Part shown: positions 35,550 to 61,780 of the stretch, one piece after another
Layout: every line of letters begins with the position of its first letter
How positions within the stretch are numbered: position 1 is the first letter of the stretch
Assembly (NCBI RefSeq): GCF_001625305.1
Contig: NW_017804120.1
Coordinates: forward strand, 291,553-355,552
Direction: 5' to 3'
Length of the DNA: 64,000 nucleotides
Source: Branchiostoma belcheri
Lineage: Eukaryota
Notes under the pieces: generated by a model
The model's database searches: none
What the model saw: only the letters and a program-made list of their open reading frames with translations
Told to the model about the DNA's origin: nothing
Program-made: the position numbers and the translations under genes

Positions 35550-35694
35550 TTTTCTCTGAAACACTCACTCAGCTGCTGATGTTATCATCATAAATAGACT
35601 CACACCAAGCTGAAGTAATGCAGGATGATGACTCCCCACACTGATTACATTAGCAGAAGCAAGGTGCCATTTCTAATGACTGAACAGGGCCAAC

Positions 35695-37217: not shown

Positions 37218-37547
37218 TTAATATCATTACTGTGAACAATTTAATAATTTGCCGACTTTCTTTTTGCTGCACCTGCTGCTACTTCCATTGTATAGTTGCG
37301 CAAACATGTCCATTTTTCTCAGACCACAAACTTTTGCTACCGCACACATACAGTCAGTACAGAATGTACAATAACTTGTACTTTTGAGATGCCTAAATGC
37401 CCAATATATAACTTATGTATAGTATATGTTTGACCTGTAATACATCAATTTTTTAACTTCCTTTAACATATTTCAACCCATCCTTAATACTGGTAGTAAT
37501 ACTTTCAACCTGCTTATTATTTTGACACCAAATTTGTTGTTTTCAGT

Positions 37548-38290: not shown

Positions 38291-38445
38291 CTCTCAGGCA
38301 TAACTATCATTTTGAGGCTGTCAGAATTGTGACACATACACAAAATCAAGATCAGTGGAATTTTCACCATGCACTGTACTCCTAGAAGAGATATGCGCAT
38401 TTTGTATGATATTCTTCAGAGGAGGATTTGAGCTTATCGTTCTAA

Positions 38446-38922
38446 GGCCACAGCAAGTTATTTATATGGATGACATCATGATCAGCGCACGCATTAATTT
38501 TCGCCTGATTTTGGAAAAAAAAAACAAGAAATTTTCTTGCCTTCTGACAGTGGTCAACGTGCCGAAAATGGGCAAAGATGTCTTCTTTCTTCTCCTTGAT
38601 GCCCAATATCATGGTAATGATGTCTGTTGCCATGCCGGAAGGTGAATGGCAGATAACTAATAGTATAAAGAGAGGAGACAAGAAAAGGCTCTGATTTAAT
38701 GTTTTGTTTCTTACTTTGATGCAGTATTATGTGATGTTGGCTGTGTACATGTGATGTTCCCACTGAATCAAAACCATTTGTACAATGATTGAGTCAAATT
38801 TTTAAAATGTAGGAACCTTGTTTTTTTTTAGTGCCTTGTTTTTTTTTTGCCCACTCGCATTAGATTTGGAGTCTGCGGAGGATGTCATCCATAAAATTTA
38901 CTTGCTGTGGCCTAAGGAAGAC
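38446..38922 (+). mobile_element. MITE subfamily C', with GGCCACAGCAAGT termini.
   Basis: About 30-bp TIRs (ggccacagcaagt...atggatgacatc) with TAA flanks. Confidence 0.7.
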
Positions 38923-39909
38923 GGCCGCCTCTCTCTTACATGTACTGCATGACAGATAGCGCACAGAGATGGGCTTTAGTTATAAATGGCATGGATTTTG
39001 GACGGATTTTCAGTCTGTGAAAGGCAATGTATCCCCCCCGCTATCTCCTTATGGATGAGACCACTATCTCTTTCCCAATCATTCTTTATGTCACATCGAG
39101 TCATCAACGATGCCTCAGCCGGCTTTTAACACATTTAGGCATCTCAAAAGTACATTTCAAGTACATCCTTGAAATGGGGTTTCAGTTCTTTAATGGGCAA
39201 AAATGGGTTCTGGCAAAATTCAGCGTGGACAGAAAAAGCGTTTTTAGATCTAGGTTATACTTCAGCAGGATATAGTGGTAGACTGTTTTAGTGTGGAAAT
39301 TTTTTGTGAGGCGAACATTACTTAAAGTTACCCTATGCAATTTCAGGGCGGCAAGACTGGATTTCAGTTTTCAATTTCTTTTGATGTAGTAAGTTGAAAC
39401 AACCCTATCCCATAGCATACTAGTATCTGTGAGGCGAATATGCAATGTCGCTGACGGAAAACGGTTGCTTGTTTTGTATCCTAGGCTGGTTTTAGCTACA
39501 TGACTGTGTATTTATGGGTGGTACCAAAAAATGAAAGAACTTCTCATATAGCTTGTTTTGGGGCTATTTCAAATGTTTCTACTAGTAAAGTAGTAATATA
39601 CAGTATATGACATGACTATAAAAACATGCTAAGAAATGGCAGTATGGAGAAGATTACAAGAAAGAATATAAAAAATGAAGACTTTAGAGATATGTGAAAA
39701 TGTTTCAGCTGCAGATTGAATTACTACAAGTACATGTAGTATTTTGTCAAACCTGAAAATTTTTCAGTTTACTTGTGCAAAGTAATTTTCTCTGTGCAAA
39801 TTCAGCACACTAATTTAAAAGTTTCTGCAAAAACATCAACTTCAGATTACATACAGGTACATGTATACTAGTCAGATTTCTAGGCTCAACCATTTTTTTT
39901 CTTTTATTA

Positions 39910-40200
39910 GGCCACAGCAAGTAATTTTTATGGATGACATCAGCGCACGCATTAATTTTTGCCTGATTTTGAAAAAAAACAAACAAGAAATTTTGTTGCC
40001 TTCTGACAGTGATAAACATGCCGAAAATGCACAAATATGTCTGTTGCCATGCCGGAACGTGGATGGCAGATAACTGAAGAGAGTAGACAAGAAAAGGCTC
40101 TGATTTAATGTTTAAAATTTGTTTCCTACTTTGATGCAGTGATATGTGATGCTGGTTGTGTATAATAATCATGTAGTCATGTTGGTTGAGTGACAAGGCT
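39910..40200 (+). mobile_element. 5'-half fragment of a C' MITE.
   Basis: Left TIR and about 250 bp homologous to 38446-38700. No right TIR. The ORF-track ORFs here are artefacts. Confidence 0.5.
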
Positions 40201-40389
40201 GGGACTCACACATAAAACTTCTTGCTATAATGGACTATACCGACTCATCATCTGAACAGGTACGATATAATATGAAAATGGTGTATTGGACAAGTAACCC
40301 GTTTAAATGGTCAGAATACACTCCATTCAATACATAAAATATCAACAAGACCAGAATTTTTAGATATTATATTGTCCTTGGTTGCACAG

Positions 40390-40459
40390 GCTGAGGTGAC
40401 TGATTATGAAGATATGAGCTGTGAGATGGTCACAGAAATCATGACCTTAGGCTATTCAG
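40390..40459 (+). CDS. Coding exon, 70 nt, encoding AEVTDYEDMSCEMVTEIMTLGYS.
   Basis: Acceptor gttgcacag|g and donor ttcag|gtaaga. Only one open frame. The 1-nt carry matches the next exon exactly. Confidence 0.45.
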
Positions 40460-41024
40460 GTAAGATATTTTCCTTATGTTTGGGTGGTAGGATGTGTTAT
40501 GAGGTCACCAGGATTGTGTATTTCATGATTCCACATTAGCAAAATTAGAGTTAGCGCCCATCCTTTGGAGATAGAGAGAGGCCGGTATAGAAGGCTACCT
40601 GTATGTGAAAGAATTTGTAAATATTGTAGTGCAAAGGCTGTGGAAGACGAAATACACTTTATCTCAAATTGTTCCTTTCATAGCAACGCTCGAAATGAGT
40701 TACATGTAACTATTCAAACTTCTACAATTCATCCCAATTTTACTAAACTTACAGACAAAGAAAAAACTATTCTTCTTTTAACTTCCCAAAACCCACTAAT
40801 TTTAGAAAAGGTGGCACATTACGTCTTCCATAGTCTAAAAAAGAGAAGTCAAACCCCTTAGACATAGTTTTAGACATAGCTAGGGTATAGCTCTAGACAA
40901 CTACCTTTTATCATGTAGATTTTAGTTATTTTATACTACGTTTCATTTTTCTTTAAAAATTTATGTTTGTAATCTGCAATTAGCTCCCCGGGCATGAATT
41001 TGCAATAAACTTCTTCTTTCACAG

Positions 41025-41141
41025 AAGGAGTCCAGAAAATGGCAGGAAAGATCTTAGACTCATCAGTAGAGCTAGAGGAAGAGAGTGAATCAGATGAAGA
41101 CATGGAATTTGGGCTGTTTGATCAAGAAGGTTGGATGGCAG
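41025..41141 (+). CDS. Coding exon, 117 nt, encoding (E)GVQKMAGKILDSSVELEEESESDEDMEFGLFDQEGWMA.
   Basis: Acceptor ttctttcacag|a and donor ggcag|gtcagt. In frame with both the upstream exon (40390) and the downstream giant exon (42102). Confidence 0.5.
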
Positions 41142-42101
41142 GTCAGTAAAAAGACCTGGGAATAATTTCATGACGTTGGTAAAGTCACTTTAAGTTAGTA
41201 AAGAGACTCTTTCTACACAGCCAAGTGTTTTATTCAACCGACATTTCGGTGACCGTCTGTCACCTTCCTCAGGGCAATTCTGACTGGTTCACATTGCACT
41301 GCAGCACAGGTGTCACTGCTATAGAATTGCCAAATGTGCAATATTTACATATCTACACTGTACACATAATTATGCATGTTTACAGGGAACTGTATCTCTT
41401 ATTCTACTATGCGGTCCCAAAGGTACGGGAGTTGGATATATTATACAAAATTGTGGTCAGTGACTACATGTACAGTTCAATAACTATATGTCTTAAAATG
41501 TTTGCGGTTGATTTATTTTTAGAGTGACCTCTCGACCCTCGAGTCAAGACTCTGTGAATAAGTGCTTCCATCCAATGCATTTACAATCCCAAACTTAGAG
41601 CACTGTGAAAAAATCCCTTTCCTATTGCAAAATCAGATCCCCACAAAAATAAAGTAACCAATTTACGGTTTAATATTCAACTTTTCAGTGAATCTGGGTG
41701 TTGGACCAGAAAGTATCGTTTGAGTAAAGGAATAGAAATAGCAAGAAAGTTGATTAAAAAAGCAAAGTCCCTTACTCAAAATGATGCACCAATGAAGTGT
41801 CTTAATACAATCTTCAAACTCAGGCCATTTCTGTCTCATCAATAAACAGGGGACCAAAGAAAAAGACTCTTAGGCAATGCTAGTCTAAGAGTCACATGTT
41901 GTAACTGTCAAATTTGAGTCCCAAATCTCTGACCTTTATATTCTTCATTAAATAAAAAGTAGAAATACCAAAAAGGGACAGTTCTGCAATTGAATATAAT
42001 TTTAAAGTTTATTGCAAATTCATACCCGAGGGCTATAGATACTCTGTGAAGTGGCATTTTTCAAAGACACTAAATCTTGAATTTTTCTATTTCTTTAACA
42101 G

Positions 42102-44475
42102 CAGATGAGGAGAAAGAGATTCTTGCTAAGCCTGAGATGGAGAAAAAGAAGGTTGCTCTCCTAGAGAAATGCAGTCGGTTAGCATCACCTGTAATGTCAA
42201 GGTCAGCTGTGGCAACCTCTACAGCATACAGCCCAACATCACCCACAAAGTTAGTCGCGTATTCAGTATATTCCAAACCTTCACCACAAAAAATGGCACT
42301 AAAGAGGGCTGAGAAAGAACTGGAGGCACCGAGACCTGAAACTGATGAAGTGACTGTTGACGTGACTCTCAAAGCGTCCTTAGACGGAATACAGGCACGT
42401 GGCGATCGTCTCGAGGATCTAATCGAGAAATCGGATACTCTTAGCGCAGAAGCTCCAGTATTCTTTCAAGCTTCAACAGCCATTTCTGAAGAACTCTTTG
42501 CTGCTACAGCAGAACCAACGGTGCACGAAGCTACATTGGTTGAATCCAAGCCAGCCGTCCTCCGAAAATCTGGAAGAGCCCCACCCAAGGGAGCTCGTTT
42601 TGTCAGAGAGGTTGAACCAGAGCCAGTTTCTGAAGAAGTTGCACAGTCTGCACCCTCAGCCGCAAGTCGGTCAGCCCCTGCTTTTGGTTTCATACCTCCA
42701 GGCGCAAGCTTCGGTAAGAAATCTGCTGGGCTTGTTGGAGGTCCTCCTGGAACTACAGCTGAAGAGACTAAGACAAAAGAGGTTGCATTTGGTCAAGGGT
42801 TTGGTTCGGATGCTGTCAGTCAAGGTGCAGGTTTTGGTGCAACCCCATTTGGCGCACCCCCATTGGATGCAACCCCATTTGGTGCACCCCCATTTGGTGC
42901 ACCCCAATTTGGCGCACCCCAATTTGGTGCAGCTAAAACTAAGACACAAGAGGCTCAAAGGTTTGGTTCAGATGCTGTCAGTCAAGGTGCAGGCTTTGGT
43001 GCAACCCCATTTGGTGCACCCCCATTGGGTGCAACCCCATTTGGTGCACCCCTGTTTGGTGCAACCCCATTTGGCGCACCCCAATTTGGTGCAGCTAAAA
43101 TTAAGACACAAGAAGCTGCATTTGGTCAAGGGTTCAGTTCAAATGCTGTCAGTCGAGGTGCAGATGTTAGTACAACCCCATTTGGTGCAACATCATTTGG
43201 TGCAACCCCATCGATTGCAACCCCATTTGGTGGAACCCCATTTGCTTCAACCATAAGCCTTTTTGGCCACAGCACTACAGCAGCAAAGGAGCCAGAGGCT
43301 GCATTGTTTGGTTTCGCTTCCTCTGCCACCCCAAGTGGAGGAGGTGGATTCAGTTTTGGTTCCACGTCATCAGACATACCACTGAAAGATGAAGATAAGA
43401 GTTCAGTCCCAATTGATTCGTCAAAAGGATTGAAGTTTGGGGCCCCTCTTGAAGAGAAAGGAGGAACAACAGGCTTTAGGTTTGGTGGATCCAGTCAGGC
43501 AAAAATGATTCCACAGCAAGGTGGCTTCATCTCTCACCCACAGATGCAACAACAACAACAGGCTCAGAGCAATGTCCCTGATAGAGCTAGAATTCCAGGG
43601 AGGAAGGCACAATCAGCAAGGAAGACAACAGGTGGCAAGGCTTTGAGACCAGCTGCAGATAAGGTTGCATCAGACGGGGTAAAAGCTGACAGTTCCCCCG
43701 ACACTGTCGTCTTTATGGATGAGAGTGATAAAGCAAAAGAGACCAAGACCCCAACATCTGCAAAATCTCCTCTGAAAATGATTCCAGCTACATGTTGTAT
43801 GGTTTGCTATGATATGCCACCCCTCTACCAACAAGGATCCCCTCCTCCACCTGCCCCCTCCCGAGGACCCCCTCCTCTGCCACCCACCTCCCAACAAGAA
43901 CCCCCTCCTCCTCCACCCCCCTGCCCAGCAGGACCCCCTCTTCCAGCTGGTGCCCCTCCCCCACCCCCTCCTCAGTTCCGTAAATCGTTATTATTAGCTC
44001 TGAGTCAAGAAAAACTAAAAGGAAAGTCAGGCCAAAGCCCAACAGAGATGATACAACCCCCTCCCTCACGCGCTCCCCCACCCTCCATGGGGGGGAGACC
44101 CCCTCCCCCACCCTCTATGGGGAGGAGACCCCCTCCTCCTATGATGACAAGGGCTCCCCCACCCAACATGGCAAGGTTGAGAGTGGATGCTGATGCACTG
44201 TACGTGTATGGTCTGGGTGAAACAACCAAGAGAATGGGAGCACGAATTGGAGCACGAATTGGAGCACGTTCTCTCAAAAAAGCAGCAGAGCTACCAAAAG
44301 GAGAAGAAGAAGAACCGATGGAAGTTGAAGAAAGTCCTGCAATCTGCGGTGAACAGGTGGAAGAAGAATCAATGGATTTGAAGTTAAGAAAACTCAAGAA
44401 GAAGAAGGTCTTGGAACTCCGGGCCGAGTTTGAGAAGAAGTACGAATCTTTGCCTGTGGATGAAAGAGAGGAAAG
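42102..44475 (+). CDS. Giant coding exon of about 2.37 kb. Reading 5' to 3' it encodes a Ser/Ala/Pro-rich stretch, then three tandem roughly 57-aa FG repeats (GFGATPFGAPP...), poly-Gln, a Lys/Arg-rich stretch, long poly-proline tracts (PPPPPPPCPAGPPLPAGAPPPPPPQ; MGGRPPPPPSMGRRPPPP), a tandem ARIG repeat (ARIGARIGAR) and an acidic E/K tail.
   Basis: 812-codon open frame in the ORF track (42077..44515). Acceptor tttctttaacag|c at 42100-42101 and donor gaaag|gtatgta at 44476-44477. Frame is continuous with the 41025 exon. The repetitive amino-acid structure is read directly from the sequence. Confidence 0.7.
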
Positions 44476-44835
44476 GTATGTAAGGATAAATCCACAAAAT
44501 TATCATTCCAATTGAGTTTTTAAAAGTTTTGGATCATTGATCAAGAGGGATAACAATTTAACATCATGATGATTCAATGTTATCTGAAGCTTACTACAAT
44601 CATAATTACATTGGGTATTTTCATCATTTTAAGTCACAGGTGCCTGAAATGTGTTTTTTCTCTGTCTTTCAAGGGCAGTCAGTTGAGTAATCATGCATTA
44701 GAGTGTTCTGTCCATTTTTATATGCAAGTAGCATTATGATTGTTCTAGATAGCATAATACTTTTTTAGCCTTTTCATGTGGTAGTAACAAATGAAATGGT
44801 AGAGGTCGAATTGGAAATCAGAAAAAAATGGACAG

Positions 44836-44877
44836 GGCGAATCTGAGAAACTACAAATTAAATTGGTGTGGCCTTAA
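44836..44877 (+). mobile_element. Solo right-TIR fragment of an A' MITE, about 10 bp upstream of the acceptor of exon 44889.
   Basis: Sequence atctgagaaactacaaattaaattggtgtggcctta matches the A' right terminus. Confidence 0.45.
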
Positions 44878-44888
44878 CTTGATTCCAG

Positions 44889-44986
44889 GGATGGTAGGAG
44901 CAGTTTGCTAAACCAGATCATGAGGGGTACAAGTCTGAGAAGAGGTCCAGGTGCATATCATTCTGCCAGCTTTCATCCAACTTCAG
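44889..44986 (+). CDS. Candidate coding exon, 98 nt, encoding (R)DGRSSLLNQIMRGTSLRRGPGAYHSASFHPTS.
   Basis: Acceptor gattccag|g and donor cttcag|gtaggt. It takes the 2-nt carry from the giant exon and passes on a 1-nt carry. Open only in this frame. Confidence 0.4.
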
Positions 44987-45942
44987 GTAGGTTCAATGGA
45001 CCTATACCATTATTACGTCACAGTTTGTTTACCGCAATGAATGCTGGTCAATCGACGTTTATATTGTACAGGGGTGCTTAGGGTGGTGTCTGTTTGTGTA
45101 GCGTTAGCCTAATATAAGGCTTTTAATACAGTACTACTTTCGTCTTATGTCACAACTAAATCACCCATGCGGCATGTAATGCTGTGTCAACACAACTATA
45201 GACGCAGCAAAAATCAAATATACCTTACTTTGAAAACTTTGAAATGATCTTTATTCTTTAACTGACCGTTCTAGAATGTTCTTTAAACAGGTAAACAAAC
45301 TGTGACGTAATAATGGTATAGGTCCATTAAGGGTAATAATAATGACCCTCCCCAAGGTGTATAAGGTGTGACCTACATGTGCTATGATACAAAACCAGCA
45401 ACTGTTTCTGTCAGAGACATCACATTCTATGGAATATTGTTGTAGCTTCAATGTACTAACTTAATTAAACATCTAAAAATGAGCAGAAAATTGATCAGAA
45501 AATCTAGTTATACTGCATTGAAATAGGTTTCATTGTCTTTAAATGCAGATGTTTGAAGAAATACATTTAGAAATGACTGAAAAAAACTCACAAATAATCA
45601 ATCTAAGAGAAGTTCAATTTCTGAAATGGTCACGCGTACAGTATGTAATGACTACAATCTGAATTTTGAACCAGTCTCAAATCTGAGGCCTGTAACAATT
45701 CTTTAATATATTTTTAATATATAAGAATAGAAGTAAAATAGTTACTAGAAAATTGTTTCATCAGTGACAAGTTTTTGAAGGGTAAGAGTACTAACGAGGA
45801 CTTGTAGTCTGAAAATTTGGAGGTTAGTACTGACTTACCCTTCATAAACTTGTCACTGATGAAAGAATTTTTTAGTAACTGTAACTGTGACAAATGAATC
45901 TCTTCAATGGAAGTAAAAAGTTAAAATTGCTTTTTTCCCAAG

Positions 45943-46052
45943 ACTCTGCAGGTTACTTCAGTGGGACAGAAACTGTTGTAGTACCCATTGTGACTACAAG
46001 GGGGAGTGGCCTTACAGAGAAGACTGTTGACCAGCTCTTTGCCTTGCTGAAG
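45943..46052 (+). CDS. Candidate coding exon, 110 nt, encoding (D)SAGYFSGTETVVVPIVTTRGSGLTEKTVDQLFALLK. It may be a cassette exon together with 47285-47396.
   Basis: Acceptor gcttttttcccaag|a (alternative AG at 45950-45951) and donor ctgaag|gtatgta. Phase 1 to 0. Confidence 0.4.
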
Positions 46053-46548
46053 GTATGTAACATCTGTGTCCATAATATCACCAGGGTCCACAATATCACC
46101 ACCTTGAGAAACAGTGTGCTTAAAGATATTTTTACTGCAACATACTTTTGGTATGCACTCCTTCACACCTCAAATGTACATACCTAGGGTATGTTGCAGT
46201 AAAAATATCTTTAAGCACACTGTTTCTCAAGGTGGCGATATTATGGACCCTGGTGATATTATGGACAGAAATGTTAATGATTTTACATAATATTTTGTTG
46301 AAATAGTGAACCTACTAGTAAGTATCTCCAGTTTTTTTTTAGACAATGTGACAGGGAGACCATATATTATCATAGATCATTATGATATTTTTGAAGGTTT
46401 TCAATTATAAGTACTTTACAGTTTGCAACAAATTATCTTTATACCCCATGTATCTTTTCAATAATTATGAACATGGCTCGTATGGAAAAATATTGTGGTA
46501 GATGTCTAGTATATATGTACATGACATTGTATAAATTTAACCTTTATG

Positions 46549-46795
46549 CGCTCATAGTCCAGTGGTTAGCGACCCTGCCTCTATACCAAGAGGTTGGGAG
46601 TTCAAATCCCAGCTGTTGTTGCTCATGCACCCAACATGCACTAGCAGGCTGCTGGAAAGGGTTGTAGTCCTTAGGACGGGACATTAAGCCAATGGTCCAC
46701 TGTTCATTGTGCTTGCCAAAAACAGCAAGGGGAATTTCCCCCCGTACAATGAACCAAATACCAAAATAATGAAACAAAAATTTTGTGTACAGTGA
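46549..46795 (+). mobile_element. tRNA-derived SINE of a different family.
   Basis: tRNA-like head gcgctcatagtccagtggttagcg...gagttcaaatccc, then an A-rich tail. Confidence 0.5.
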
Positions 46796-46804
46796 TGTCT
46801 GTGT

Positions 46805-47112
46805 GGTGTAGTGGATAGAGCGTCCGACTGTCAAGCAAGGGGACCCAGGTTCAATCCCCAGGGTTGAACCCAGACATGTCCGGACATGCACCCAGACATT
46901 GTGCCCTTGGGAAAGGCAGTGTCTTAACATGCATTCAATCCCCCCTCAGTTAGAGGGATCCCAGGCCCTACTAGGGTTTGGGTTGGCGTTAGGAGAGCTG
47001 AACCAGCTGTAAAAATCCTGCTTCAAAAAAAGACTAAGTCTTGTACTTGGTGCAAGCATGTCTAACCCCCGGTTGGGGAAAATGATGTTAAATTCGGTTT
47101 TAAAAAAAAAAT
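46805..47112 (+). mobile_element. tRNA-derived SINE carrying the shared core domain and a poly-A tail.
   Basis: Head gtggtgtagtggatagagcg...ggttcaatcccc, then core cattgtgcccttgggaaaggca, ending in aaaaaaaaaa. Tail fragments of the same family occur at about 17540-17620 (+) and 48440-48515 (-). Confidence 0.6.
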
Positions 47113-47284
47113 TACTTGTAGCATCTCTCTTCTCGATCTCTGTCACAACCAGTGGGAGATTACTCTTCAGTGAGCTACAACTGTATCAAGATTCCCTTCC
47201 TTTCATCAACGTACAACATTTATAATTCTACTTCTAATGATAGCGTAGAGTTTTAACATGATGTTGCCCCCCTCCCCACCCCAG

Positions 47285-47396
47285 CATACTGACCAGGGTT
47301 CTTACTGGGAGTTCAGTCCAGAGCTGGACCAGCTGCTGGGTATTTCCAGTTCAACGTGTGTCCAGATATTCAACACTGCAGGCCTCAGGTCTCTCG
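47285..47396 (+). CDS. Candidate coding exon, 112 nt, encoding HTDQGSYWEFSPELDQLLGISSSTCVQIFNTAGLRSL.
   Basis: Acceptor cccctccccaccccag|c and donor ctctcg|gtaagc. Phase 0 to a 1-nt carry, which fits the 48186 exon. Confidence 0.4.
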
Positions 47397-47598
47397 GTAA
47401 GCCCATCTTCGTCATTACCAGGACCAAGCTAGCTATTTTTCACTTCACATAGCCCTATCAAGCATTGCTTTTTCTAAAATTGTGTTCAATGCCTGTGCCT
47501 TCATGAACTAAAGTGTCAGTAAAAGTCAGTAACTTCCGAAATGCTGACGCTTGGTTTTCAGTATTGCATGTACATGTAGTAGGACAGAAAAACTTTCT

Positions 47599-47670
47599 TC
47601 ACTCACTCGCTCACTCGCTCACTCACTCACTCACTCACTCACTCACTCACTCACTCACTCACTCACTCAC
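47599..47670. repeat. (CACT)n microsatellite, about 18 units.
   Basis: Repeated cactcactcgctcactcgctcactcactcactc... Confidence 0.95.
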
Positions 47671-48185
47671 TATCCATTTGGTTTGGTTAAAAAGCTTGAT
47701 GCCTGGTAAATTTCACTCTAGATCTGGGGTGGGCGAGCTTTTGAGACAGCCACAGGACACTTCAGCTTTCATAAATTGTTTTGAGTGTTGTTACATCAAA
47801 TTTCACATTTACCAATTCATGGGCCAAATACTGTCTCCTAGATGTACAAATTGCTAGTAACGTTACATGTTTGTACACATAGACCATTCACATACTACCG
47901 GTATGAGAAATAAAGATTTTGATACTCAAGTCAACTTTATTGCACAACAGTTACAGTTGCATCGGATACAATGCATGGAAAATAATACTTAATACTACTA
48001 GCTGTAAACTATTTCTACTAAGCCTACTAACTCACCTAACTTTATCAATCAATACTTGTACAACTTGATAACATGACGGAATATTACATTTCACATCTTG
48101 TGAGACAGTTTCTCTTTTAAATTATTAATTTGTATAAGATTTCTGAATGTAAAATTCAGTGATTTTCACCTGTTTTTGTATCCAG

Positions 48186-48361
48186 GTGCAAAGGTAGCCA
48201 AGCAGCTGTTGCAGCTGGTGGCCACCTTGCTGGTGCTGCAGCTGTTGATGCTGCACCTGCCGCAGCTGTTTCCCAGCTGCAGTAGCCTGCTGCACCTGGA
48301 TGTGATGCAGGTGGCTGCAGAATGGCGCAGCGCAGTGCAACAGGTGCTGGCATGGGCCAAG
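48186..48361 (+). CDS. Penultimate coding exon, 176 nt, encoding (G)AKVAKQLLQLVATLLVLQLLMLHLPQLFPSCSSLLHLDVMQVAAEWRSAVQQVLAWAK. It is CAG/CTG-rich and leucine-rich.
   Basis: Acceptor tttttgtatccag|g and donor gccaag|gtaggt. Open only in this frame (the + ORF 48176..48379). Accepts a 1-nt carry from either the 44889 or the 47285 exon. Confidence 0.5.
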
Positions 48362-48815
48362 GTAGGTGATAGCTTTTAGTATTATACAGCCCAGTGTCGT
48401 AACCAGCATCCATCTTTCCATCGTTTGACTGAATTTTGCTTTTATTTAAATCCAATTTTAACGTCATTTTCCCCCCAAACGGGGGTTAGACGTGCTTGCA
48501 TCAGATGCAGGTCTTTTTTTTTTGAGCAAGGTGGCAAATAAGCCAGTGGCTTATTCAATTGAGAATGATGTTTGTTTATTTGTTAATTTTGATTTTTCAC
48601 AAAGTGAAAGGGAGGGCAAAACATATGCACCTTTACAAGTCGCCCCTTCCTCAATACATACAAAAACACATACATGTATATTATACATCAAAATTTGCAT
48701 AGTCCATGACAAAAAGTATAAGAATACACAGAATAATCAATCAATGTAGAAGGTTAAGCATAATTCATAATTCAATGTTAACTCTAATTTTTTGCTTGTT
48801 GATGTTTACTCAATC

Positions 48816-48844
48816 TGTTTGTTTGTTTGTTTGTTTGTTTGTTG
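48816..48844. repeat. (GTTT)n microsatellite forming the polypyrimidine tract of the terminal-exon acceptor.
   Basis: 7 units, directly upstream of ttcccag|g at 48851. Confidence 0.9.
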
Positions 48845-48851
48845 TTCCCAG

Positions 48852-48962
48852 GGTGTTGACACCATGCACCCATCAGTGTACTCCAGGTTAGAGCTGGGGA
48901 AGAGTTGGGATGACCTGACCAAGAAGCTGATTGGTGTTGGTGTCTCTCTTGTACATGAATGA
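48852..48962 (+). CDS. Terminal coding exon encoding GVDTMHPSVYSRLELGKSWDDLTKKLIGVGVSLVHE, followed by a TGA stop at 48960-48962.
   Basis: Acceptor (gttt)n-gttgttcccag|g; 36 codons in phase 0, then a stop. AATAAA motifs lie about 220-250 nt downstream. Confidence 0.5.
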   Translation, partial: GVDTMHPSVYSRLELGKSWDDLTKKLIGVGVSLVHE

Positions 48963-49182
48963 AAATTCAAAAACAATTTGTACTTTTTATTATTATCATT
49001 AATAGTATGTATTATTGTTATTGGTTAGTTACTGTTCCTTTATTATCATTGCCATTATCATTATTTATTGTTTTTTACTGTTAGTATGTGACTGTTGTGT
49101 TTCGTTGTGTAAAACAGGGCCCCATTGAAAATAAGTGTAATCACTTAATGGGCCACCCTGTATAAAAATGACAGAAAATAAG

Positions 49183-49208
49183 AAATAAAATAAATGAAAA
49201 TAAATAAA
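49183..49208 (+). other. Cluster of AATAAA polyadenylation-signal motifs in the 3' UTR of the plus-strand gene.
   Basis: Sequence aataaaataaatgaaaataaataaaat downstream of the 48960 stop. No later plus-strand exon candidate found. Confidence 0.25.
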
Positions 49209-50368
49209 ATCATTATAACTTTGTTGCAAATCTGTGACCGAAGGGCTAATTTTTTCTGTCAAAGCAAAGTTCAATGTTTTACAAAGTTTAACGTGACTAA
49301 TATGTTTAATACATGGGACAGTCCTTTACAGTAAATTACATTGTATGTATTGTTTTTAAATCTTATTTCATACTAGGGGCCGACTATTCATTACAATGAA
49401 TAATTTCTGATCTTATTTGTTTTTAAATCATAATTTTTATGTGAATACTGATCAGATGTAAAGTGTCAGAGCAATTAAGGATCCCTTTGGGAGCCCCGCC
49501 ATACTGTCACTGTTTTTAAAAGAGGAAATAATTATTATTTTTATTATTATAATTTTAAGTGTAAATAAGATACCTTCAATTCAACCAGTGCTACTTTTAC
49601 TATAATGAAAGTTGACCTGTGTTTGGTTTTTACATTGTTTAAAGACACAAGGAATTGTTTTCACCAATAGAGATTTTGACCAGTCAATAGAGAGAACTTT
49701 ATTGCACGACAATTGCGCAAGGTACAATGTATGGCAAACTACATAAAGTGGGTAACAAACAATAAAATAAATGTGTTGAATAAGACCTAATGTCGAATAA
49801 AACCTAACATATCTTTATTATTAAAACAATAAGGGATAGAACAAGTCTTTGATAAAGTGTTACAATCGAGTGGGCTAATCACAAGGTTCTGTATTTTTTC
49901 TAATAACAAAGCATTCCTTTATATATGTATTACTTATTTTGGGGAACCATTGCATGCAAAGATATATTCAAATCTGTCTCCCACATCGAGACTTTTGAAA
50001 TCTGTTGTACTTGATTCGAGAAATGTAAATAGGTTGTTACGCATAACATAGGCTGACCCAGTGAGACTTGTCACGTGGCTTGCTTGATGTGTGATATTGA
50101 CACTGGGTCCCTTTTAGTACTACTTTTTATCTCTTTTCTGTAAAAGTATGGAATTAGCCTGGGTGCCAGGGTTGCCGTTACAAATCGGATGGCACCCAGG
50201 CTACTATGGAATATGATTTAATGATTAATATTTTTAAAGAGATATACTTGTACATGTTGGAAAGTGTAAGCAGGAAGAAAGTTGCTTGTACAATGTAGGC
50301 TGTAAGATTTATAACGTTTGGGGAAAATTTTGGATCTGTATATATTTGGTGGCAACATTATGTGATAA

Positions 50369-50733
50369 GGCCACACCAAGTAATTTTTATGGATGACGTC
50401 CTCTAGAGACCCTAAATATAATGCTAGAGCGCGAAAAAAGAACGGCTAAAAAAAGCAAAAGATACCTAGTTTTGAAATATAACAAGAGGTGACAAATGTT
50501 AGGAGACAAATTGAACAAGAGAACACAGAGTAACAACCAACAAGTCTTTTATTCATCATAAAAACAGCAATAAATAGATCTTCGAACCTTGTGATTTGTG
50601 AATCTGTCGTATACAGTACATGTACACAATCTTTGGTCATAGTTACAAGAAGCGGAATTTACTTTTTTTTCTGGATACAGGCCAAAATCAATGCACGCGT
50701 GGACGTCATCCATAAAATTTACTTGGTGTGGCC
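50369..50733 (-). mobile_element. MITE family C copy (variant) in reverse orientation.
   Basis: Both C TIRs present. The body matches the C right half. Confidence 0.7.
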
Positions 50734-51182
50734 TGATATTCCACTGCTAAAATGTCCATTCGATCAGGGATCATAAAAAGACTGGCCTTTTGCACATTGT
50801 AATAAAGTTGAAATAAATAAATAAATGTTCAGATGCCAATATTAAGTTTCTTTTTGGGTGATTTTCCTTGGTGTTGTAAAACTGAATGTTTCATATCTTT
50901 TATTACAATCATTTTAAAAAATCATGGCATCCTGATATGAAAATGTATACATCAGATTTTTTGTGATGTTCAGAACATTTCTCTTTCTACTTGTACTAGC
51001 ATGTGGAATTAAAAAGATTATTGTTCAAATGATCATGTTGGGCTAAATTTAATTGCACAGTGCTATAACTGTATTGAATGGTTAGCTAAAACGATCAGAT
51101 GCAACCCTGGTAGTAACGTAACACTCAGCTACACAAGCAGTTTTTTTCCTCAAGGAAATATAATGTGTGTCAATATCAACAA

Positions 51183-51340
51183 AAGTTCAGCACCAAGGAC
51201 AGGTTTGCCTGTGTGTGTGGTGTTCAGCACCAAGGACAGGTTTACCTGTGTGTGGAAGGTGTTCAGCACCAAGGACAGGTTTGCCTGTGTGTGTGGTGTT
51301 CAGCACCAAGGACAGGTTTACCTGTGTGTGGAAGGTGTTG
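51183..51340. repeat. 39-bp minisatellite, about 4 units. This is the left part of an array that was split by insertions.
   Basis: Unit gttcagcaccaaggacaggtttgcctgtgtgtggaaggt. Same unit as the array at 52492-52965. Confidence 0.8.
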
Positions 51341-51937: not shown

Positions 51938-52490
51938 GGTCGTGTGGCGCAGTCGGTAGCGCGTTCGGCTCACACCTCAGAGGTTGCGGGTTCGAACCCC
52001 ACCTTGTGCACCGATCTTGTGCCCTTGGGAAAGGCACTTTACACGACTTTCGTCACTTCACTCAGGTGTAAAATGAGTACCTAGCTTCGGTTAGGGACGT
52101 CCCTCAGATAGGACGTAAACTGGAGGTCCCGTGTTTGAGGAGAGCCACACCTCGAGCACGTTAAAGATCCCACCACAACTTTCGAAAAAGAGTAGGGGCA
52201 TGCCCCGGTGTGCGATGGTCCAAACACTACTGTACGGAGTTGGTGATTCACTTCAAATCACCCGGACAGAGGCCTGGCGACCTCCGTCTTGTATAAGCCA
52301 CATGGTGATTTACATCATTCACCCGGACGGAGGCCTGGCGAACCCCGTCTGTATCAGCCAAATCTTGGAGAGGAGATACGCGCCGCCAAGATTATACGCC
52401 TACTGAAACATCATGGCGCAAGTCCAGACATGCTGCTGGCTGCCATGATGCCCCTACGACCGTTCACGGTTATGGGTCTACATACATACA
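51938..52490 (+). mobile_element. tRNA-derived SINE, about 550 bp, with a (CATA)n tail. It is inserted into a 39-bp minisatellite.
   Basis: Head gtggcgcagtcggtagcgcg...ggttcgaacccc. Core gtgcccttgggaaaggcactttacacgactttcgtcacttcac. The minisatellite resumes immediately after the tail. Confidence 0.65.
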
Positions 52491-52491: not shown

Positions 52492-52965
52492 ACATGGACC
52501 AAGGACAGGTTAGCGTGTGTGTGGAAGGTGTTCAGCACCAAGGACAGGTTTGCCTGCGTGTGGAAGGTGTTCAGCACCAAGGACAGGTTTGCTAGTCTGT
52601 GGAAGGTGTTCAGCACCAAGGACAGGTTTGCTAGTGTGTGGAAGGTGTTCAGCACCAAGGACAGGTTTGCTAGTCTGTGGAAGGTGTTCAGCACCAAGGA
52701 CAGGTTTGCCTGTGTGTGGAAGGTGTTCAGCACCAAGGACAGGTTTGCCTGTGTGTGGATGGTGTTAAGCACCAAGGACAGGTTTGCCTGTGTGTGTGGA
52801 AGGTGTTCAGCACCAAGGACAGGTTTGCTAGTGTGTGGAAGGTGTTCAGCACCAAGGACAGGTTTGCCTGTGTGTGGAAGGTGTTCAGCACCAAGGGCAG
52901 GTTTGCCTGTGTGTGTGGAAGGTGTTCAGCACCAAAGACAGGTTTGCCTGTGTGTGGAAGGTGTT
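52492..52965. repeat. 39-bp minisatellite, about 12 units.
   Basis: Unit aaggacaggtttgcctgtgtgtggaaggtgttcagcacc. ORFs 52517..52768, 52519..53073 and 52677..53000 are artefacts. Confidence 0.85.
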
Positions 52966-55731: not shown

Positions 55732-56067
55732 TTATAAAGGCATCGATGCTGAGCTTAAGAAATGAGTTGTAGTTTTTCATTTTGTTATGAGTTTTAGTAT
55801 AATTGTAACAATTGTGGTAATAAGAAAACAGTTTGCATTATGCAATCAAAAATCCTAACCAATAATGTAGGGGATAGCTATCCAACTGTTGTTACTTCAT
55901 ATTAAAGTAAATTTTAACTGTTATGTCAATGTTAAGAATTGTTTTTCCTTGTATTTCTCCTTCTTTTCCTGCCATGTCGTGAAATGTGGTCAGAAGCCAT
56001 GCTGAATTTGCTCCAAAGCAAATGTCGGCCTTTCTTAGGTTTCATTTTGAATTTTCATTACTATATA

Positions 56068-56123
56068 CTAGTTGTACATCCCTGGGGGAGGGGGTTTGCT
56101 GTCTTCTGGAGCCTGCTGGAGCT
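56068..56123 (-). CDS. Possible terminal exon of the death-domain gene, encoding (E)LQQAPEDSKPPPPGMYN then TAG.
   Basis: Minus-strand acceptor tttttatgtttcag|ag. The frame is correct given the 1-nt carry from the death-domain exon and reaches a stop after 18 codons. No clear AATAAA seen, so this is weak. Confidence 0.25.
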
Positions 56124-56344
56124 CTGAAACATAAAAATGTAAATAGTGACAATTCACATCCTCACATGCTTTAATCCTCTGGGTTTTCAGTTATTAGGTA
56201 GCTAATGAATATCTTTTTAACATGCCAGCACAGAAAATAAGGCACATGCAGATATCATGAAAACAACTGTTCTATTTTTTAAGTCATTAATGCTCACAGT
56301 GCCTACATGCATATGCATACATGCATATAATATAAGATTTATTA

Positions 56345-56713
56345 GGCCACACCAATTTGATTTCTTGGTTAACAGATTTTTGAAGAAAAATAATGAGCGG
56401 GCGGGCGAAATAAAGGTAAAAACAGGCCTAGGCATCCTATTATGGCCCAAAATGGTACGATAGGAGCCATGAAGTCAACACACCAGGCTGGTTCAAAATT
56501 TGAACAATGAATTTTTAACTTTTAATCATACCACTAGCACTACATTGAAAGATGGAATAACTGTAACAACTAGGAAGAAAAGGACTGTTTTCAACTGTTC
56601 AGGGCAAAATATGAGCATTTTGCAGTTAATTCTGAATTCTTATTTTTATTTGCAAATCAGAAAAAAATGAAGCGGGCGAATCCGTTTAACCAAGAAATTG
56701 AATTGGTGTGGCC
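56345..56713 (-). mobile_element. MITE family A, copy 5, in reverse orientation.
   Basis: Reverse complement of the family A consensus. TTA flanks. Confidence 0.75.
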
Positions 56714-56734
56714 TTATCAGTGTTTAACTAATAA

Positions 56735-57122
56735 GGCCATGTTGATTTGATTATATGGATGACATCCTCCGGGAGCCCCAAAATTGATGCGCGCGTGCGA
56801 ATAAAAAAAAAGTTTTGCAAAAAAAAAGTTGTTTTCATTATGAAATCTACGTGGTCATGAGGGTTGAACAAATGGGACAGAATATGGTTTGGCGAATAAT
56901 CTAGTCTTCAAGTTCATTTCTTTACAATTTTGTCTTTTTCCGTTTGATTTTGGCATTCTACGACATTGGTATGGTTTTTTGTAACTTACGGTATGTTTTT
57001 GCTCATTTTGCAACCGTTTTGTACAATTTACAGTATGGTTGAAAACTTTTTTTTTTTGGAAACGGCCGAAAATTCATGTGCGCGCGGATCGATGTCATCC
57101 ATATTATCAAATCAACATGGCC
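56735..57122 (+). mobile_element. MITE family E. TIR is GGCCATGTTGATTTGATTATATGGATGACATC.
   Basis: About 32-bp TIRs, TAA flanks. Shares the GGCCA terminus and ATGGATGAC motif with family C. Lies directly upstream (on the minus strand, inside the intron) of the death-domain exon. Confidence 0.7.
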
Positions 57123-57209
57123 TAATTGTATGTAATATATGCCACATGGAGACTTAAATGCTGCCGCGGTCTTTTGGAATTCATAAAAAAGGACAAAAAA
57201 AACTGTTAC

Positions 57210-57467
57210 CTGGAAACCTACTCTGTAGCTCGTGTAGTGCCTTCAGAAGCTGTAGCTCATTCAGAGCTGCCATGATCTGCCATATAGCATAGCGGCCTGG
57301 AGTTCTACTTCTGAACACTTGTAGCATGTCCTGGCAGCAAGACCTGTAGTCCTTGTTTCTCCCATCAATGTTTTTGATGTCCTCCCAGCTCAGTCCTAGC
57401 TTCAAAGCCAGATCCTTCCACTCATCTGTCACATGTTCAGTGATACAGAGGGTGTACTGGTTGAAAT
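57210..57467 (-). CDS. Coding exon encoding a complete death domain: (D)FNQYTLCITEHVTDEWKDLALKLGLSWEDIKNIDGRNKDYRSCCQDMLQVFRSRTPGRYAIWQIMAALNELQLLKALHELQSRFP.
   Basis: Minus-strand acceptor ttcttcttccag|at and donor ccag|gtaacag; 258 nt. The W-x-x-LA-x-x-LGLS-x-x-I...ML-x-x-W...A-x-x-x-L-x-x-AL pattern is the death-domain helix 1-6 signature. The open frame is also in the ORF track (57181..57525). Confidence 0.7.
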
Positions 57468-58376
57468 CTGGAAGAAGAAAAATTTGCAGTGAGACACATG
57501 ACTTTGTATTAACTAGTGCACACACAAAACCAACAAGAGTTCCACGATCTCATACCTTCGTCAATTGATGTTAACCCTTGCGGGTGACGAATTATACAAT
57601 TTTAATCATTGATTTTGTAAATAAAAGCCTCATTTGCATGGATTGTATCAGTTGATCATATTCTCTATCCAATGACAACCTTATCATAACAAAAAGGCTA
57701 TTATAGCAATTCCTCATAAATTATGCAAATGAGGTCATGATTTGAATAAATTATGTTTATTGATGTTCACCTTCACTTAACTTCTAAATGTGGCAAGTAT
57801 GAAATTCGGGGTGCAGCAGTTACAACTATGGAATTATAAGAATTTGCCATTAATTTTGCAAATTAGGTCCTCATTTACATAATCTATATCCTCAGATGTT
57901 TTTCTCGTTCTCAAGTAGATGTCACAAGTGTTTCATAGTTCTATTATCGAACAAAGCAGATTTATAGATTTCCTCATTAATTATGCAAATTAGCTCCTGA
58001 TTTGCATAATTGCCATCTGCTTATATCAAGCATCACTTCAACTACCTACATACCAAAAATCACAACAATACGTCAACCGTTTCTTGAGTTATCGTCCTTC
58101 AAATTTTTTCAACAAATGCTCCTGCAGTTCCAGAACAAGGCGCTAGGGGACCCAAACTCATGTCACTTTTTCCCTACCCCAAGAGCTATCTACCAACCAA
58201 AATTCGTGACCCTAGCATGTCCAGAACATGAGATATCAAAACCGGAAGTTCAGCTGCAGTACCTAGGAAAGCCGCCAGAGGGCCCAAAATCTAATCATTT
58301 CTAGGTCTCATGAAGAACTACCCTCCTACCAAGTTTCATTCCAATCCATCCACTGCTTCTCGAGTTATCTTGCTAA

Positions 58377-58836
58377 GGCCACACCAAGTAAATTTTATGG
58401 ATGACGTCCTTTGAAGTCACCCTAAATCTAATGCGAGAGGGCGAATAAAAAACAAGAAGGGCCCTAAAAAACAAGATGCCTAGATTAGAAATATACTAAG
58501 AGATGACAAATGTTAGGACACAAATTGAATGAGGTGACACAGTGTAACAAGCAAGGAGTCTTTTATTCATCATCAAAACAGCAATAAATCAGGTGGAACA
58601 GCAGTTGTCATCCTGTCATGTTTTTTTTCATTACATTTTTGCAGGCCTGCAGAAACAAAGCATGTGCTCTTTACTCATTTCGCGTTACGGGTTTCACGTC
58701 AATCTAACGATTTGCGGCACTGTTGTGACTCTTTGGTCATAGTTACAGGAAGAGGAATTTCTTGTTTTTTTTTCTAGGAACAGGCCAAAATCAATGCGCG
58801 CGCGGACGTCATCCATAAAATTTTCTTGGTGTGGCC
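58377..58836 (-). mobile_element. MITE family C copy nested inside the family F element 57536-58926.
   Basis: Both C TIRs with TAA/TAA flanks. It interrupts the F sequence just before F's (CA)n tail. Confidence 0.75.
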
Positions 58837-58838
58837 TA

Positions 58839-58847
58839 AACCACACA

Positions 58848-58886
<39 letters not shown>
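58839..58886. repeat. (CA)n microsatellite at the end of the family F element. A CA-rich stretch continues to about 59060.
   Basis: Read directly. Confidence 0.9.
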
Positions 58887-58887
<1 letters not shown>

Positions 58888-59189
58888 TGCTACTGAAAAC
58901 ATATTATCCTTCTTGGCAAAGGTAACAATGTACTTTTAATTAACCATCAATATAGCTCTAGATCTGCTTCTTCTCCCAATAAATTGATGCAAACACAGTC
59001 ACACACAAACACACAAAAACACATTCATACGCACACACACAAATTCACCCCCACTGCACCTCACACAAACACAAATTAATGAAAATGACATTAATGCCAA
59101 TCAATCAAACACACCACAGAATTTGATACTAAATTTGAAGAAAATTACAAATTGATTTGGAAATAAAAAGAAGAAGAAAAATCTGTTAC

Positions 59190-59223
59190 CTTGATCCCCA
59201 GTTTGGTCATCATCATCAGCCAT
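59190..59223 (-). CDS. First coding exon of a minus-strand death-domain gene, encoding MADDDDQTGDQ plus a 1-nt carry. The exon body likely spans 59190-59285 and includes 5' UTR.
   Basis: Minus strand reads caacATGGCTGATGATGATGACCAAACTGGGGATCAAG|gtaacag. Good Kozak context, in-frame upstream TAA, and an upstream minus-strand acceptor (aaaacag|cc) at about 59285. The 1-nt carry g plus the next exon's at gives GAT, in frame with the death-domain exon. Confidence 0.45.
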
Positions 59224-59839
59224 GTTGAGTTATACACAGTAGACAACGTGCAGTCCACCAACAGTTCTGGGGGCATAGGCCAAGGCTGTTTTTGACATGA
59301 GTAAATTAAATACATGTTTTACATCTAGGGAATTTTGCATGAATTTGTGTGCTGAAATTTCTACAAAATAATGACCCTTCTGTAAAATGTTGGATTTTCA
59401 ATAATTTGTTGCAGAAAGAATGACCGAATATCGACCAAAAATGTAAAACTTTACAGGAAGTGCTGTACTGTGTAATGACAAAGCAAAAACTATGTTCAAC
59501 CATATTTGATAGTAGCAGTTTCCGTGTTGGCAGAGAAAATTATTATAAATACTTAGTTCTTTGTTGTGTCTTGTATCTTGATCCTGGGGTGTTTCAGCTA
59601 TCAATGAAAAGGGGGAAATTCCTTAAGTTTGAACACTTGCATACTCACCTTTCAAAATGGCGGCTTCTTACATGCGGCTCCCTGTGAACCTTAGTTGACC
59701 CCTTCAGGTATGTCTTGACGTCATGGCTAAAGCCAGGTATGTCGGGAAACTTAAACTCACCTTTGTACTGTTGTTAGTAAAACATGGGGTCCATTGTAGT
59801 GTTACCTTGAGTTCTTAAACACCATGTCTTTGTCTTAAG

Positions 59840-61000
59840 TTAGGTGGCTGTTGACTGATGCAGTAGTGGTGAATTCTTCGTAAACCTGACAAGAGAAGAT
59901 TGGACCAGCCCAGGTGATTTGAAGACCGAAGATGACTCTCAGGTGAGAAAAATCTGAATTCTGCATTCAACCTACTATTTACTTTCAAATTGTTATTTGA
60001 GACAAGTGTGTAACTTGTAATGTCTGTATAGTTAGGTGGCTGTTGACTGATGCAGTAGTGGTGAATTCTTCGTAAACCTGACAAGAGAAGATTGGACCAG
60101 ACCAGATGATTTGAAGACCAGAGATGACTCTCAGGTGCATGAGAAAAATCTGAATTTTGCATTCAACCTACTATTTACTTTGTTATTTGAGACAAGTGTG
60201 TGACTTCTAATGTTTTTATAGTTAGGTGGCTGCTGACTGAGTATTGAAGACTACTGTCTGAACTTGACAAGACAGATTTGACCAGACCAGATGATTTGAA
60301 GACCCAAGAGGAATATCAGGTGAGAAAAATCCCAATTCTGCATTTTCTATTTGATGTTATTTGAGACAAGTGTGTAACTTCTAATGTTTGTACCTGGTGG
60401 CTGTTGACTGATGCAGTAGTGGTGAATTCTTCGTAAACCTGACGAGAAGATTGGACCAGACCAGGTGATTTGAAGATTGAAGATGACTCTCAGGTGAGAA
60501 AAATCTGAATTCTGCATTCAACCTACTATTTACTTTGTTATTTGGGACAAGTGTGTAACTTCTAATGTTTTTATAGTTAGGTGACGACTTTTATAGTGAT
60601 GACTCTTGTCTGAACCTGACAAGACAGATTTGACCAGACCAGATAATTTGAAGACCCAAGAGGAATATCGGGTAAGAAAAATCCCAATTCTGCATTTTCT
60701 ATTTGATATTATTTGAGACAAGCGTGTAACTTCTTATGTTTGTACCTGGTGGCTGTTGACTGATGCAGTAGTGGTGAATTCTTCATAAACCTGACAAGAG
60801 AAGATTGGACCAGACCAGGTGATTTGAAGACCGAAGATGACTCTCAGGTGAGAAAAATCTGAATTTTGCATTCAACCTACTATTTACTTTGTTATTTGAG
60901 ACAAGTGTGTAACGTCTAATGTCTGTATAGTTAGGTGGCTGCTGACTGATGCAGTAGTGAAGACTGTCTGATCCTGACATGAGAAGATTGGACCAGATCG
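59840..61000 (+). repeat. Tandem array of about 6 roughly 185-bp units, alternating between two variants. Each unit has the form ag|TTAGGTGGCTG...(ATGACTCTC)AG|gtgag, so it resembles an exon.
   Basis: The unit recurs at about 59840, 60030, 60220, 60400, 60570, 60740 and 60930. It contains an AG acceptor, an internal ATG in the A-type units, and a GTGAG donor. Confidence 0.7.
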
Positions 61001-61780
61001 GGTGATTTAGAGACACAAGTCTAGCAAGATGACAACAAGTCAACATCCACAGGTGAGTCAATACATTAGAAGATCTGTTTGACTTTAGCACTGTTCCCTT
61101 ATGTCTTACACTTTATAAAAATAACACACATGAAGCAAAACATCTTTCACATTTTGCGTTGCCTTACTTGAATAAATGTCTGGTATATTGCACTTCTTTG
61201 AGCACTTGAGCATCTACATTTCTAGGATGAGGCAAAGTACAAGGTCACAATAGTTCATCCTTACCTGGTAGCTAGTTGCCTATTCATACCTGCATCAATT
61301 GTCCTTTTATATAGGTATAATTAGGGTCAGCAGTCCTGATGTTCCTGTCCAAACCAGGCCTGAGTTAAAGACAGACCAAAGTGAAGAGATTGTATACAGG
61401 TGAGACAATGCTAATTAAAATTACAACTTTATTTTTCTATGTGAACATATCTAAGCAAAGGGGTTGTATGATTGAAGGATTTTATCTATTTTATCTTTTA
61501 TGGTCACTCAATGTTGCTTGGAATTTTTTGGGGAGCACCACACTAATTATTCATTATATCATTTAGGTGTGTTGTGATGTTCCTGTCCTGATGTAGTGTC
61601 CTGAGTGGGAGAAACGTGACAATGGACAACTTCTGATGCCGACCTGGAGACTGGACTGCAGCAGGAGGAAGAACCAGACTTTTGTAGGCAGGGCTGTGTG
61701 AAAGAAGATGGGGAGGAGTGAGTATGGTTTCTTTATTAACACGAGACATACACACACTTGCACTTTTTTCATTTAACGTT

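Follow-up and report, generated by a model that had tools for sequence, protein, structure and literature searches.

The stretch of DNA analysed here is a 64,000-nucleotide segment of the genome of the lancelet Branchiostoma belcheri (RefSeq assembly GCF_001625305.1, contig NW_017804120.1, positions 291,553 to 355,552 of the forward strand), hereafter the window, and the subject of this report is a small gene on its minus strand whose predicted product contains a death domain (DD) and no other recognizable domain. An original prediction, made from the letters alone, had placed three exons at 59190-59223, 57210-57467 and 56068-56123 of that strand. These coordinates proved exact; both introns are bounded by GT and AG, and both interrupt a codon in phase 1. 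The parts of the gene are as follows (^ marks an exon boundary; MITE, miniature inverted-repeat transposable element):

59223-59190, minus strand: exon 1, coding part; ATG plus 10 codons and the first base of a split Asp codon (MADDDDQTGDQ, G^AT)
57468-59189, minus strand: intron 1; 1722 bp, phase 1, about 325 bp once transposon insertions are subtracted
57467-57210, minus strand: exon 2; 258 nt, phase 1-1, carrying the entire death domain
56124-57209, minus strand: intron 2; 1086 bp, phase 1, about 310 bp once its two MITEs are subtracted
56123-56068, minus strand: exon 3, coding part; (G^)AG CTC ..., encoding ELQQAPEDSKPPPPGMYN, and the TAG stop (56070-56068)

Joined, with the split codons restored as G^AT (Asp) and G^AG (Glu), the exons form an open coding sequence of 348 nt that specifies exactly 115 amino acids plus a stop, where a product of about that size had been expected. 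The predicted protein reads MADDDDQTGDQ / DFNQY...SRFP / ELQQAPEDSKPPPPGMYN and thus has a short acidic N-terminus, a single death domain and a short proline-rich tail. A WW-binding PPxY motif was considered for the C-terminal PPPPGMY and ruled out, as the spacing is PPxxY. The start codon of exon 1 occupies 59223-59221, and the last base of the exon, 59190, is followed by the donor CAAG^GTAACAG. Exon 2 is entered at ...TTCTTCCAG^AT, after a pyrimidine tract and CAG, and is left at CCAG^GTAACAG; the acceptor of exon 3 is TGTTTCAG^AG, and 56068 is the final base of the stop codon. The first 45 nt of the two introns look alike (GTAACAG, a T-rich run and TTCCAAA), and their score of 11, against a null of -3.6 ± 9.3, was reached by 2 of 41 controls and is not significant.

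Exon 2 read alone in frame 1 contains many stops because it lies between phase-1 introns. Random 258-nt windows of this sequence are stop-free in about 1.6-1.8% of cases, and the locus is called coding, beyond its open reading frame (ORF) alone, because of the Pfam Death match described below and a contrast in GC content (exons 47-59%, introns 35-37%; 56% at third codon positions). For exon 1, an in-frame TAA lies two codons 5' of the ATG with no AG between them, so in its frame this exon can only be a start exon. Scored with a generic donor matrix, its donor ranks sixth among 167 candidates that combine an ATG with a phase-1 donor in the 6.5 kb upstream, and it is the closest good start candidate once transposons are discounted. 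Its opening, MA followed by acidic residues and Gln, resembles the starts of the family members P0068, P0063, P0011 and P0101. Together, the right phase, the stop just upstream and the family-like start make a weaker but real case that this is the first exon.

That exon 2 encodes a death domain is, from profile and fold comparisons, beyond reasonable doubt. In the profile check proposed with the original prediction, the Pfam family Death (PF00531) matched with 40.2 bits (gathering cutoff 22.6) and an E-value of 3.7e-10 over profile positions 7-84 of 86, and it is the sole Pfam family in the product. An AlphaFold2 model, computed from exon 2 aligned with 14 Branchiostoma homologues, has a mean pLDDT of 90.3 and a pTM of 0.79; DSSP assigns helices at residues 2-23, 28-37, 41-55, 60-71 and 75-84, the first two helices of the fold being merged. 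When the model was compared with the PDB using Foldseek, the top 36 matches were all death domains, the closest being that of FADD (TM-score 0.90, root-mean-square deviation 1.3-1.4 Å), and no MyD88- or IRAK-type entry was among these 36. The PDB entries nearest by sequence are death domains of TNFR1 (E about 8e-5), followed by those of RIPK1 and DR3. The death domains of TNFR1, FADD and RIPK1 (PDB 1ich, 3ezq, 6aci, 9v9e) resemble the predicted protein in both sequence and fold, including a '...R-x-R-T-P-x-R' stretch shared with TNFR1; however, they are just 19-28% identical to it, and theirs belong to a receptor, an adaptor or a kinase. As read from the PDB sequence alignment, the Arg of FADD and TNFR1 that is modified by bacterial NleB appears to correspond to a Lys in the window protein.

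An exhaustive phmmer search of 1.84 billion cluster representatives with exon 2 returned 95 hits, 17 of them with E-values below 1e-10. All relatives looked up are Branchiostoma proteins, the best being 48% identical, which agrees with the earlier suggestion of a death-domain expansion in an invertebrate deuterostome, the window being from amphioxus. The architectures in this family include CARD-DD (P0005), DED-DD (P0013), coiled-coil-DD (P0006 and P0007) and multiple death domains (P0001 and P0002); other members are proteins of 300-2000 amino acids with an N-terminal death domain and proteins of 76-175 amino acids in which Death is the only domain. In a 16-sequence family alignment the window sequence keeps all 12 invariant columns, which is true by definition, as the sequence is itself in the alignment. 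It differs at four of 11 nearly invariant positions (K10T, W52F, G57P and T61A), and the window protein is accordingly a divergent member of a lancelet subfamily.

The relationship extends to gene structure. The loci of four relatives were recovered (P0010, P0025, P0005 and L005), and in each, as in the window gene, a 258-nt death-domain exon of phase 1-1 is followed by an exon that starts with 'EL':

P0010 (locus L002), B. lanceolatum, 114 amino acids, DD only: 15-codon start exon ending C^AT; DD exon of 258 nt; next exon G^AA CTG ('EL...'), 13 codons to the stop
P0025 (locus L003), B. floridae, 120 amino acids, DD only: start exon of phase 1; DD exon of 258 nt; next exon G^AA CTG CAG ('ELQDVC', then a stop)
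P0005 (locus L004), B. lanceolatum, 262 amino acids, CARD-DD: preceding exon ending G^AT as in the window; DD exon of 258 nt; next exon G^AG CTT ('ELR', then a stop)
P0101 locus (L005), hybrid assembly derived from B. belcheri, DD-NACHT gene: 'MAEEQT' plus G^; DD exon of 258 nt; an 'EL...' exon that opens a NACHT gene 264 bp downstream

The first introns of P0010 and P0025 measure 58 and 170 bp, and the introns of the relatives range overall from 58 to 475 bp. Across the downstream junction of the death-domain exon, the motif (Y/F)(P/Q)EL occurs in 31 instances among the relatives, and the window has RFP^ELQ; the G^AG or G^AA junction of the window gene is also found in P0005, P0010 and P0025. 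Because the relatives share both the 258-nt phase 1-1 exon and the 'EL' exon, the join of exon 2 to exon 3 is independently supported, and the 18-codon terminal exon, at first regarded as only possible, gains backing from the ...(Y/F)P^EL... that the relatives encode around this phase-1 junction. In a large, lancelet-specific subfamily of death domains, the 258-nt exon of phase 1-1 serves as the standard module and is ready for shuffling.

Two of these proteins, XP_066297286.1 (P0010) and XP_035663224.1 (P0025), share with the window gene a three-exon layout, a size of 114-120 amino acids and Death as the sole Pfam domain. They differ in that their death domains are 39-43% identical to that of the window, their first exons are dissimilar, and the introns of the window gene are much longer and filled with transposons; the window gene is also unannotated. 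Our literature search found nothing specific on characterized DD-only proteins from lancelets or elsewhere, and no tested function for proteins of the P0010 and P0025 type. In L003 (3001-3659 and 5896-6659), the B. floridae gene for P0025 is followed 2.2 kb downstream, in the same orientation, by a gene that combines two Death domains with SEFIR and TIR; it seems that genes for small death-domain proteins have larger immune-type genes as neighbours.

The FADD-like P0013 (DED-DD) and the CRADD-like P0005 (CARD-DD) belong to the same subfamily as the window gene, with 42-48% identity and the same death-domain exon module. In contrast to the window protein, both possess an additional death-fold domain for coupling to caspases; since it lacks one, the window protein would be unable to bridge to a caspase as they do. 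By Pfam, neither DED nor CARD is present in the product, which therefore falls outside the bipartite adaptors of the FADD or CRADD type. Partner domains were also sought in the surrounding DNA. A Pfam scan of stop-to-stop ORFs of at least 55 amino acids on both strands between 46.8 and 64 kb matched the Death exon only, with no CARD, DED or NACHT, and tblastn of 96 relatives, with all their domains, against the whole window found exon 2 only, hence no second death domain or other family-related exon in the window. No NACHT exon lies in the approximately 9 kb downstream of exon 3, which itself stops after 18 codons. A CARD, DED or NACHT partner inside the window is thus excluded; one could lie beyond position 64000, where the window ends 4.8 kb upstream of the predicted start. 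On these grounds we strongly infer that the gene stands alone.

Taken together, the gene model of the original prediction is confirmed, and its interpretation as an isolated death domain is supported by the sequence comparisons. We lean, by somewhat more than an even chance, towards a real, unannotated three-exon gene of B. belcheri, transcribed from near the proposed start, whose 115-amino acid DD-only protein would modulate or adapt death-domain signalling. The predicted protein would be cytosolic, without an enzymatic or second interaction domain. Death domains act solely via homotypic interactions that build oligomeric signalling complexes, and homotypic binding to other death domains would be the sole plausible activity of this one. 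Its targets may be assemblies of the death-receptor, FADD or RIPK1 type, because it has no enzymatic or second interaction domain and its nearest neighbours in sequence and fold are of that type. In such assemblies it would fill interfaces without relaying the signal and so act, presumably in an inhibitory direction, as a cap or decoy; a role as a nucleator seems less likely.

The proposed decoy role is drawn by analogy. The presumed origin of CARD-only proteins (COPs) and pyrin-only proteins (POPs) is a larger signalling gene that was duplicated and truncated. These are single death-fold domains that regulate inflammasome assemblies by occupying interfaces (PMC3775265; PMC10803020). The COPs and POPs of primates resemble the window protein in having one death-fold domain, and they act by competing for homotypic interfaces (PMC3775265; PMC10803020); however, theirs is a CARD or pyrin domain in primates, whereas the window protein is a death domain in a lancelet, and the suggested likeness is one of mechanism and not of membership. 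The gene itself would most likely have originated as a duplicate of the 5' three exons (start, DD and 'EL') of a family member with an N-terminal death domain. Such an origin fits because lancelets show extreme exon shuffling that is biased to 1-1 phase domain exons (PMC4284660), as well as extensive rearrangement of DD, DED and CARD (PMC2575513; PMC3196919). As the protein is at most 48% identical to any relative, yet its reading frame is unbroken and its domain folds with confidence in the model, long-term purifying selection appears to be implied.

Several observations weigh against a functional stand-alone gene. A word-indexed search of 5.8 billion proteins, including the RefSeq and GenBank models of B. 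belcheri, found no match to the 115-amino acid product, and an unspliced 114-amino acid ORF is likewise without a database record. The first canonical poly(A) signals stand at 55181, 55162 and 55119, some 880-950 nt beyond the stop; none occurs within about 880 nt of it, a distance that shrinks to about 250 nt if repeats are removed. Four of 11 nearly invariant family positions are changed (K10T, W52F, G57P and T61A), and 20 of the 31 'PEL' instances run on into larger proteins. The RefSeq 104-amino acid 'DD-only' P0101 (L005 6001-6960) reads through the donor of its 258-nt death-domain exon, and by sequence the real gene is probably a DD-NACHT-LRR gene divided into two models. Small DD-only models in the databases are thus not all reliable precedents, although P0010 and P0025 have properly spliced terminal exons. 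The basis of the decoy role, finally, is analogy only.

A second B. belcheri assembly adds to these points. Positions 41030-51146 of the window are colinear with GCA_025402995.1 (locus L001) at 91-98.6% identity, a level that matches the reported allelic divergence of the species, 4.39% single-nucleotide polymorphisms plus 0.98% small indels (PMC4284660). Colinearity stops at 51146. In the 6.8 kb of L001 past that point (34575-41375) an SRCR/WSC/CUB gene has its 3' end, and a death-domain exon is missing. Exons of the SRCR, WSC or CUB type are in turn missing from the window, which past 51146 has tandem repeats, MITEs and the death-domain gene. Over the retrievable part of the second assembly, the window and L001 differ structurally beyond 51146.

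These points lend some weight to a different reading, in which a larger gene with an N-terminal death domain (e.g., DD-NACHT-LRR) was copied in part, from its 5' end, into transposon-rich, structurally variable DNA, so that the locus would be a gene fragment or a young pseudogene. The frame would then close by chance 18 codons into exon 3, and the locus would be unexpressed, or expressed without function. An MA-acidic start, a 258-nt death-domain exon and an 'EL' exon are the 5' layout of many multi-domain relatives, the four altered residues and the abundance of MITEs and tandem repeats point the same way, and in lancelets exons and gene fragments move between haplotypes at very high rates (PMC4284660). 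Neither the B. belcheri annotations in the database nor the retrievable part of the second assembly contains the gene. Against this, the three-exon ORF is intact, with canonical splice sites and correct phases, the contrast in GC content between exons and introns is kept, and the exons are free of all transposons. With the closest relative only 48% identical, a copy would have to be old, and for a gene long dead an open frame (about 1.7% by chance), a Pfam-significant profile and a fold with a pLDDT of 90 would be unexpected. We regard a fragment as possible but doubtful. Much less probable is that exon 2 belongs, as an internal cassette of phase 1-1, to a larger gene. The remaining exons of that gene would lie beyond 64000 or be so short as to escape detection, and the ATG exon at 59223 would be fortuitous. 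A phase 1-1 exon can be inserted between any phase-1 introns, relatives with a C-terminal death domain exist (P0005, P0006 and P0007), just 4.8 kb of upstream sequence is visible, and five of the 167 start candidates outscore exon 1 with the generic donor matrix. However, apart from the gene itself the window encodes nothing related to the family, be it a CARD, a DED or a coiled coil, and the DNA upstream of the gene at 59838-61019 is taken up by non-coding tandem repeats. In favour of the predicted start are its correct phase, the in-frame stop shortly before it and its MA-acidic sequence, which is typical of the family. With transposons removed, about 325 bp separate it from exon 2, and the first introns of the two relatives checked measure 58 and 170 bp. 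That the frame is open by chance and the domain match spurious, for which one could cite only that some 1.7% of random 258-nt stretches of this sequence contain no stop, is already refuted by the Pfam E-value of 3.7e-10, the fold match at a TM-score of 0.90, the 17 relatives with E-values below 1e-10 across 1.84 billion proteins and the exon boundaries shared with relatives.

A more far-reaching form of the decoy proposal is that a functional DD-only decoy is present in some B. belcheri haplotypes and not in others, tuning signalling of the death-receptor, FADD or RIPK1 type differently between individuals. It would then be a natural equivalent, among death domains, of the COPs and POPs, and would have arisen when the phase 1-1 DD module was duplicated. 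We consider this unlikely. If true, single-death-fold inhibitors would have arisen repeatedly and independently in chordates, and gene-content variation would reach the core of apoptosis and innate-immune wiring. On the reading that we favour, a real DD-only gene, the locus is an unannotated, divergent addition to a well-known lineage-specific death-domain expansion, unsurprising to a specialist. With it, the death-domain repertoire of lancelets gains one divergent paralogue that had escaped annotation; the current understanding of the death-domain family is unchanged, and the gene, if expressed, provides a candidate natural death-domain decoy. It also shows cleanly how the 258-nt exon of phase 1-1 serves as a portable module across DD-only, CARD-DD and DD-NACHT genes. 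For annotation, it carries the caveat that lancelet proteins catalogued as 'DD-only' are in some cases read-through artefacts derived from larger genes, as with P0101, while real candidates such as the window gene are missed.

The introns and the 3' flank of the gene are occupied by the following transposons and repeats (UTR, untranslated region):

57532-58372 and 58847-58928, intron 1: dispersed element of about 920 bp; other copies at 8740-9580 and 15337-16275
58374-58839, intron 1: MITE nested in the dispersed element; 34-nt inverted ends, 97% complementary
58842-58885, intron 1: (CA)22 run within the span of the dispersed element
56730-57127, intron 2, 83 bp from exon 2: MITE ('family E' of the original prediction); 37-nt inverted ends, 95% complementary; related copy at 16406-16694
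56342-56719, intron 2: second MITE, at least five copies in the window, absent from the original prediction
55827-56035, presumed 3' UTR, 31 bp 3' of the stop: dispersed repeat of about 210 bp; three copies in L001 at 82-84% identity
55315-55738, presumed 3' UTR or downstream region: MITE

The copy of the dispersed element at 15337-16275 is continuous through the point of MITE insertion, which demonstrates the nesting; the nested transposon in intron 1 and the MITE near exon 2, both anticipated from the sequence, are thus borne out by their copies and inverted ends. All insertions are confined to the introns or the 3' flank and leave the coding sequence untouched, and the introns without them (about 310-325 bp) are within or near the size range of the relatives' introns. 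A structural-variant breakpoint 31 bp past the stop codon was considered and ruled out, as the 'anchor' at 55827-56035 is the dispersed repeat with three L001 copies. The four MITEs of approximately 380-470 bp listed above lie within 3.6 kb and have related inverted ends (AGGCCACACCAA... and ...GATGTCATCC); many further copies of the family occur across the window, and it has been very active in the region. The tandem array at 59838-61019, which begins about 600 bp upstream of the predicted start, is non-coding and consists of 174-bp units with a 352-bp higher-order period and 77-89% matches.

The next gene downstream is convergent and P0097-like, with its last exon at 48846-48959. It comprises a single-exon ORF of 812 amino acids at 42077-44515 on the plus strand and further exons to 48959, with FG repeats and a poly-proline region. 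The 812-amino acid ORF is 99-100% identical to B. belcheri P0097 ('PARP4' in GenBank), except in FG-repeat copy number and in a 19-amino acid segment that the P0097 model skips, and this near-identity assigns the window to B. belcheri. The 5' exons of P0097 (amino acids 1-338, including a 14-3-3 match) are not in the window; either two genes have been joined in the P0097 model or a rearrangement has affected the window upstream of 41030.

Between this gene and the death-domain gene, Rfam matches a tRNA at 51938-52010 on the plus strand (37.7 bits; gathering score 29), for which ARAGORN gives no call; it is probably a tRNA-derived short interspersed element or a pseudo-tRNA. Rfam also matches mir-2060, which we take to be a Branchiostoma microRNA family, at three plus-strand sites, 51203-51290, 52509-52598 and 52743-52834 (73-79 bits; gathering score 54.5). 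All three lie inside tandem arrays with a period of 37-39 bp (51185-51339 and 52498-52965), and they may represent either a tandemly amplified microRNA locus or a microRNA family built on a repeat.

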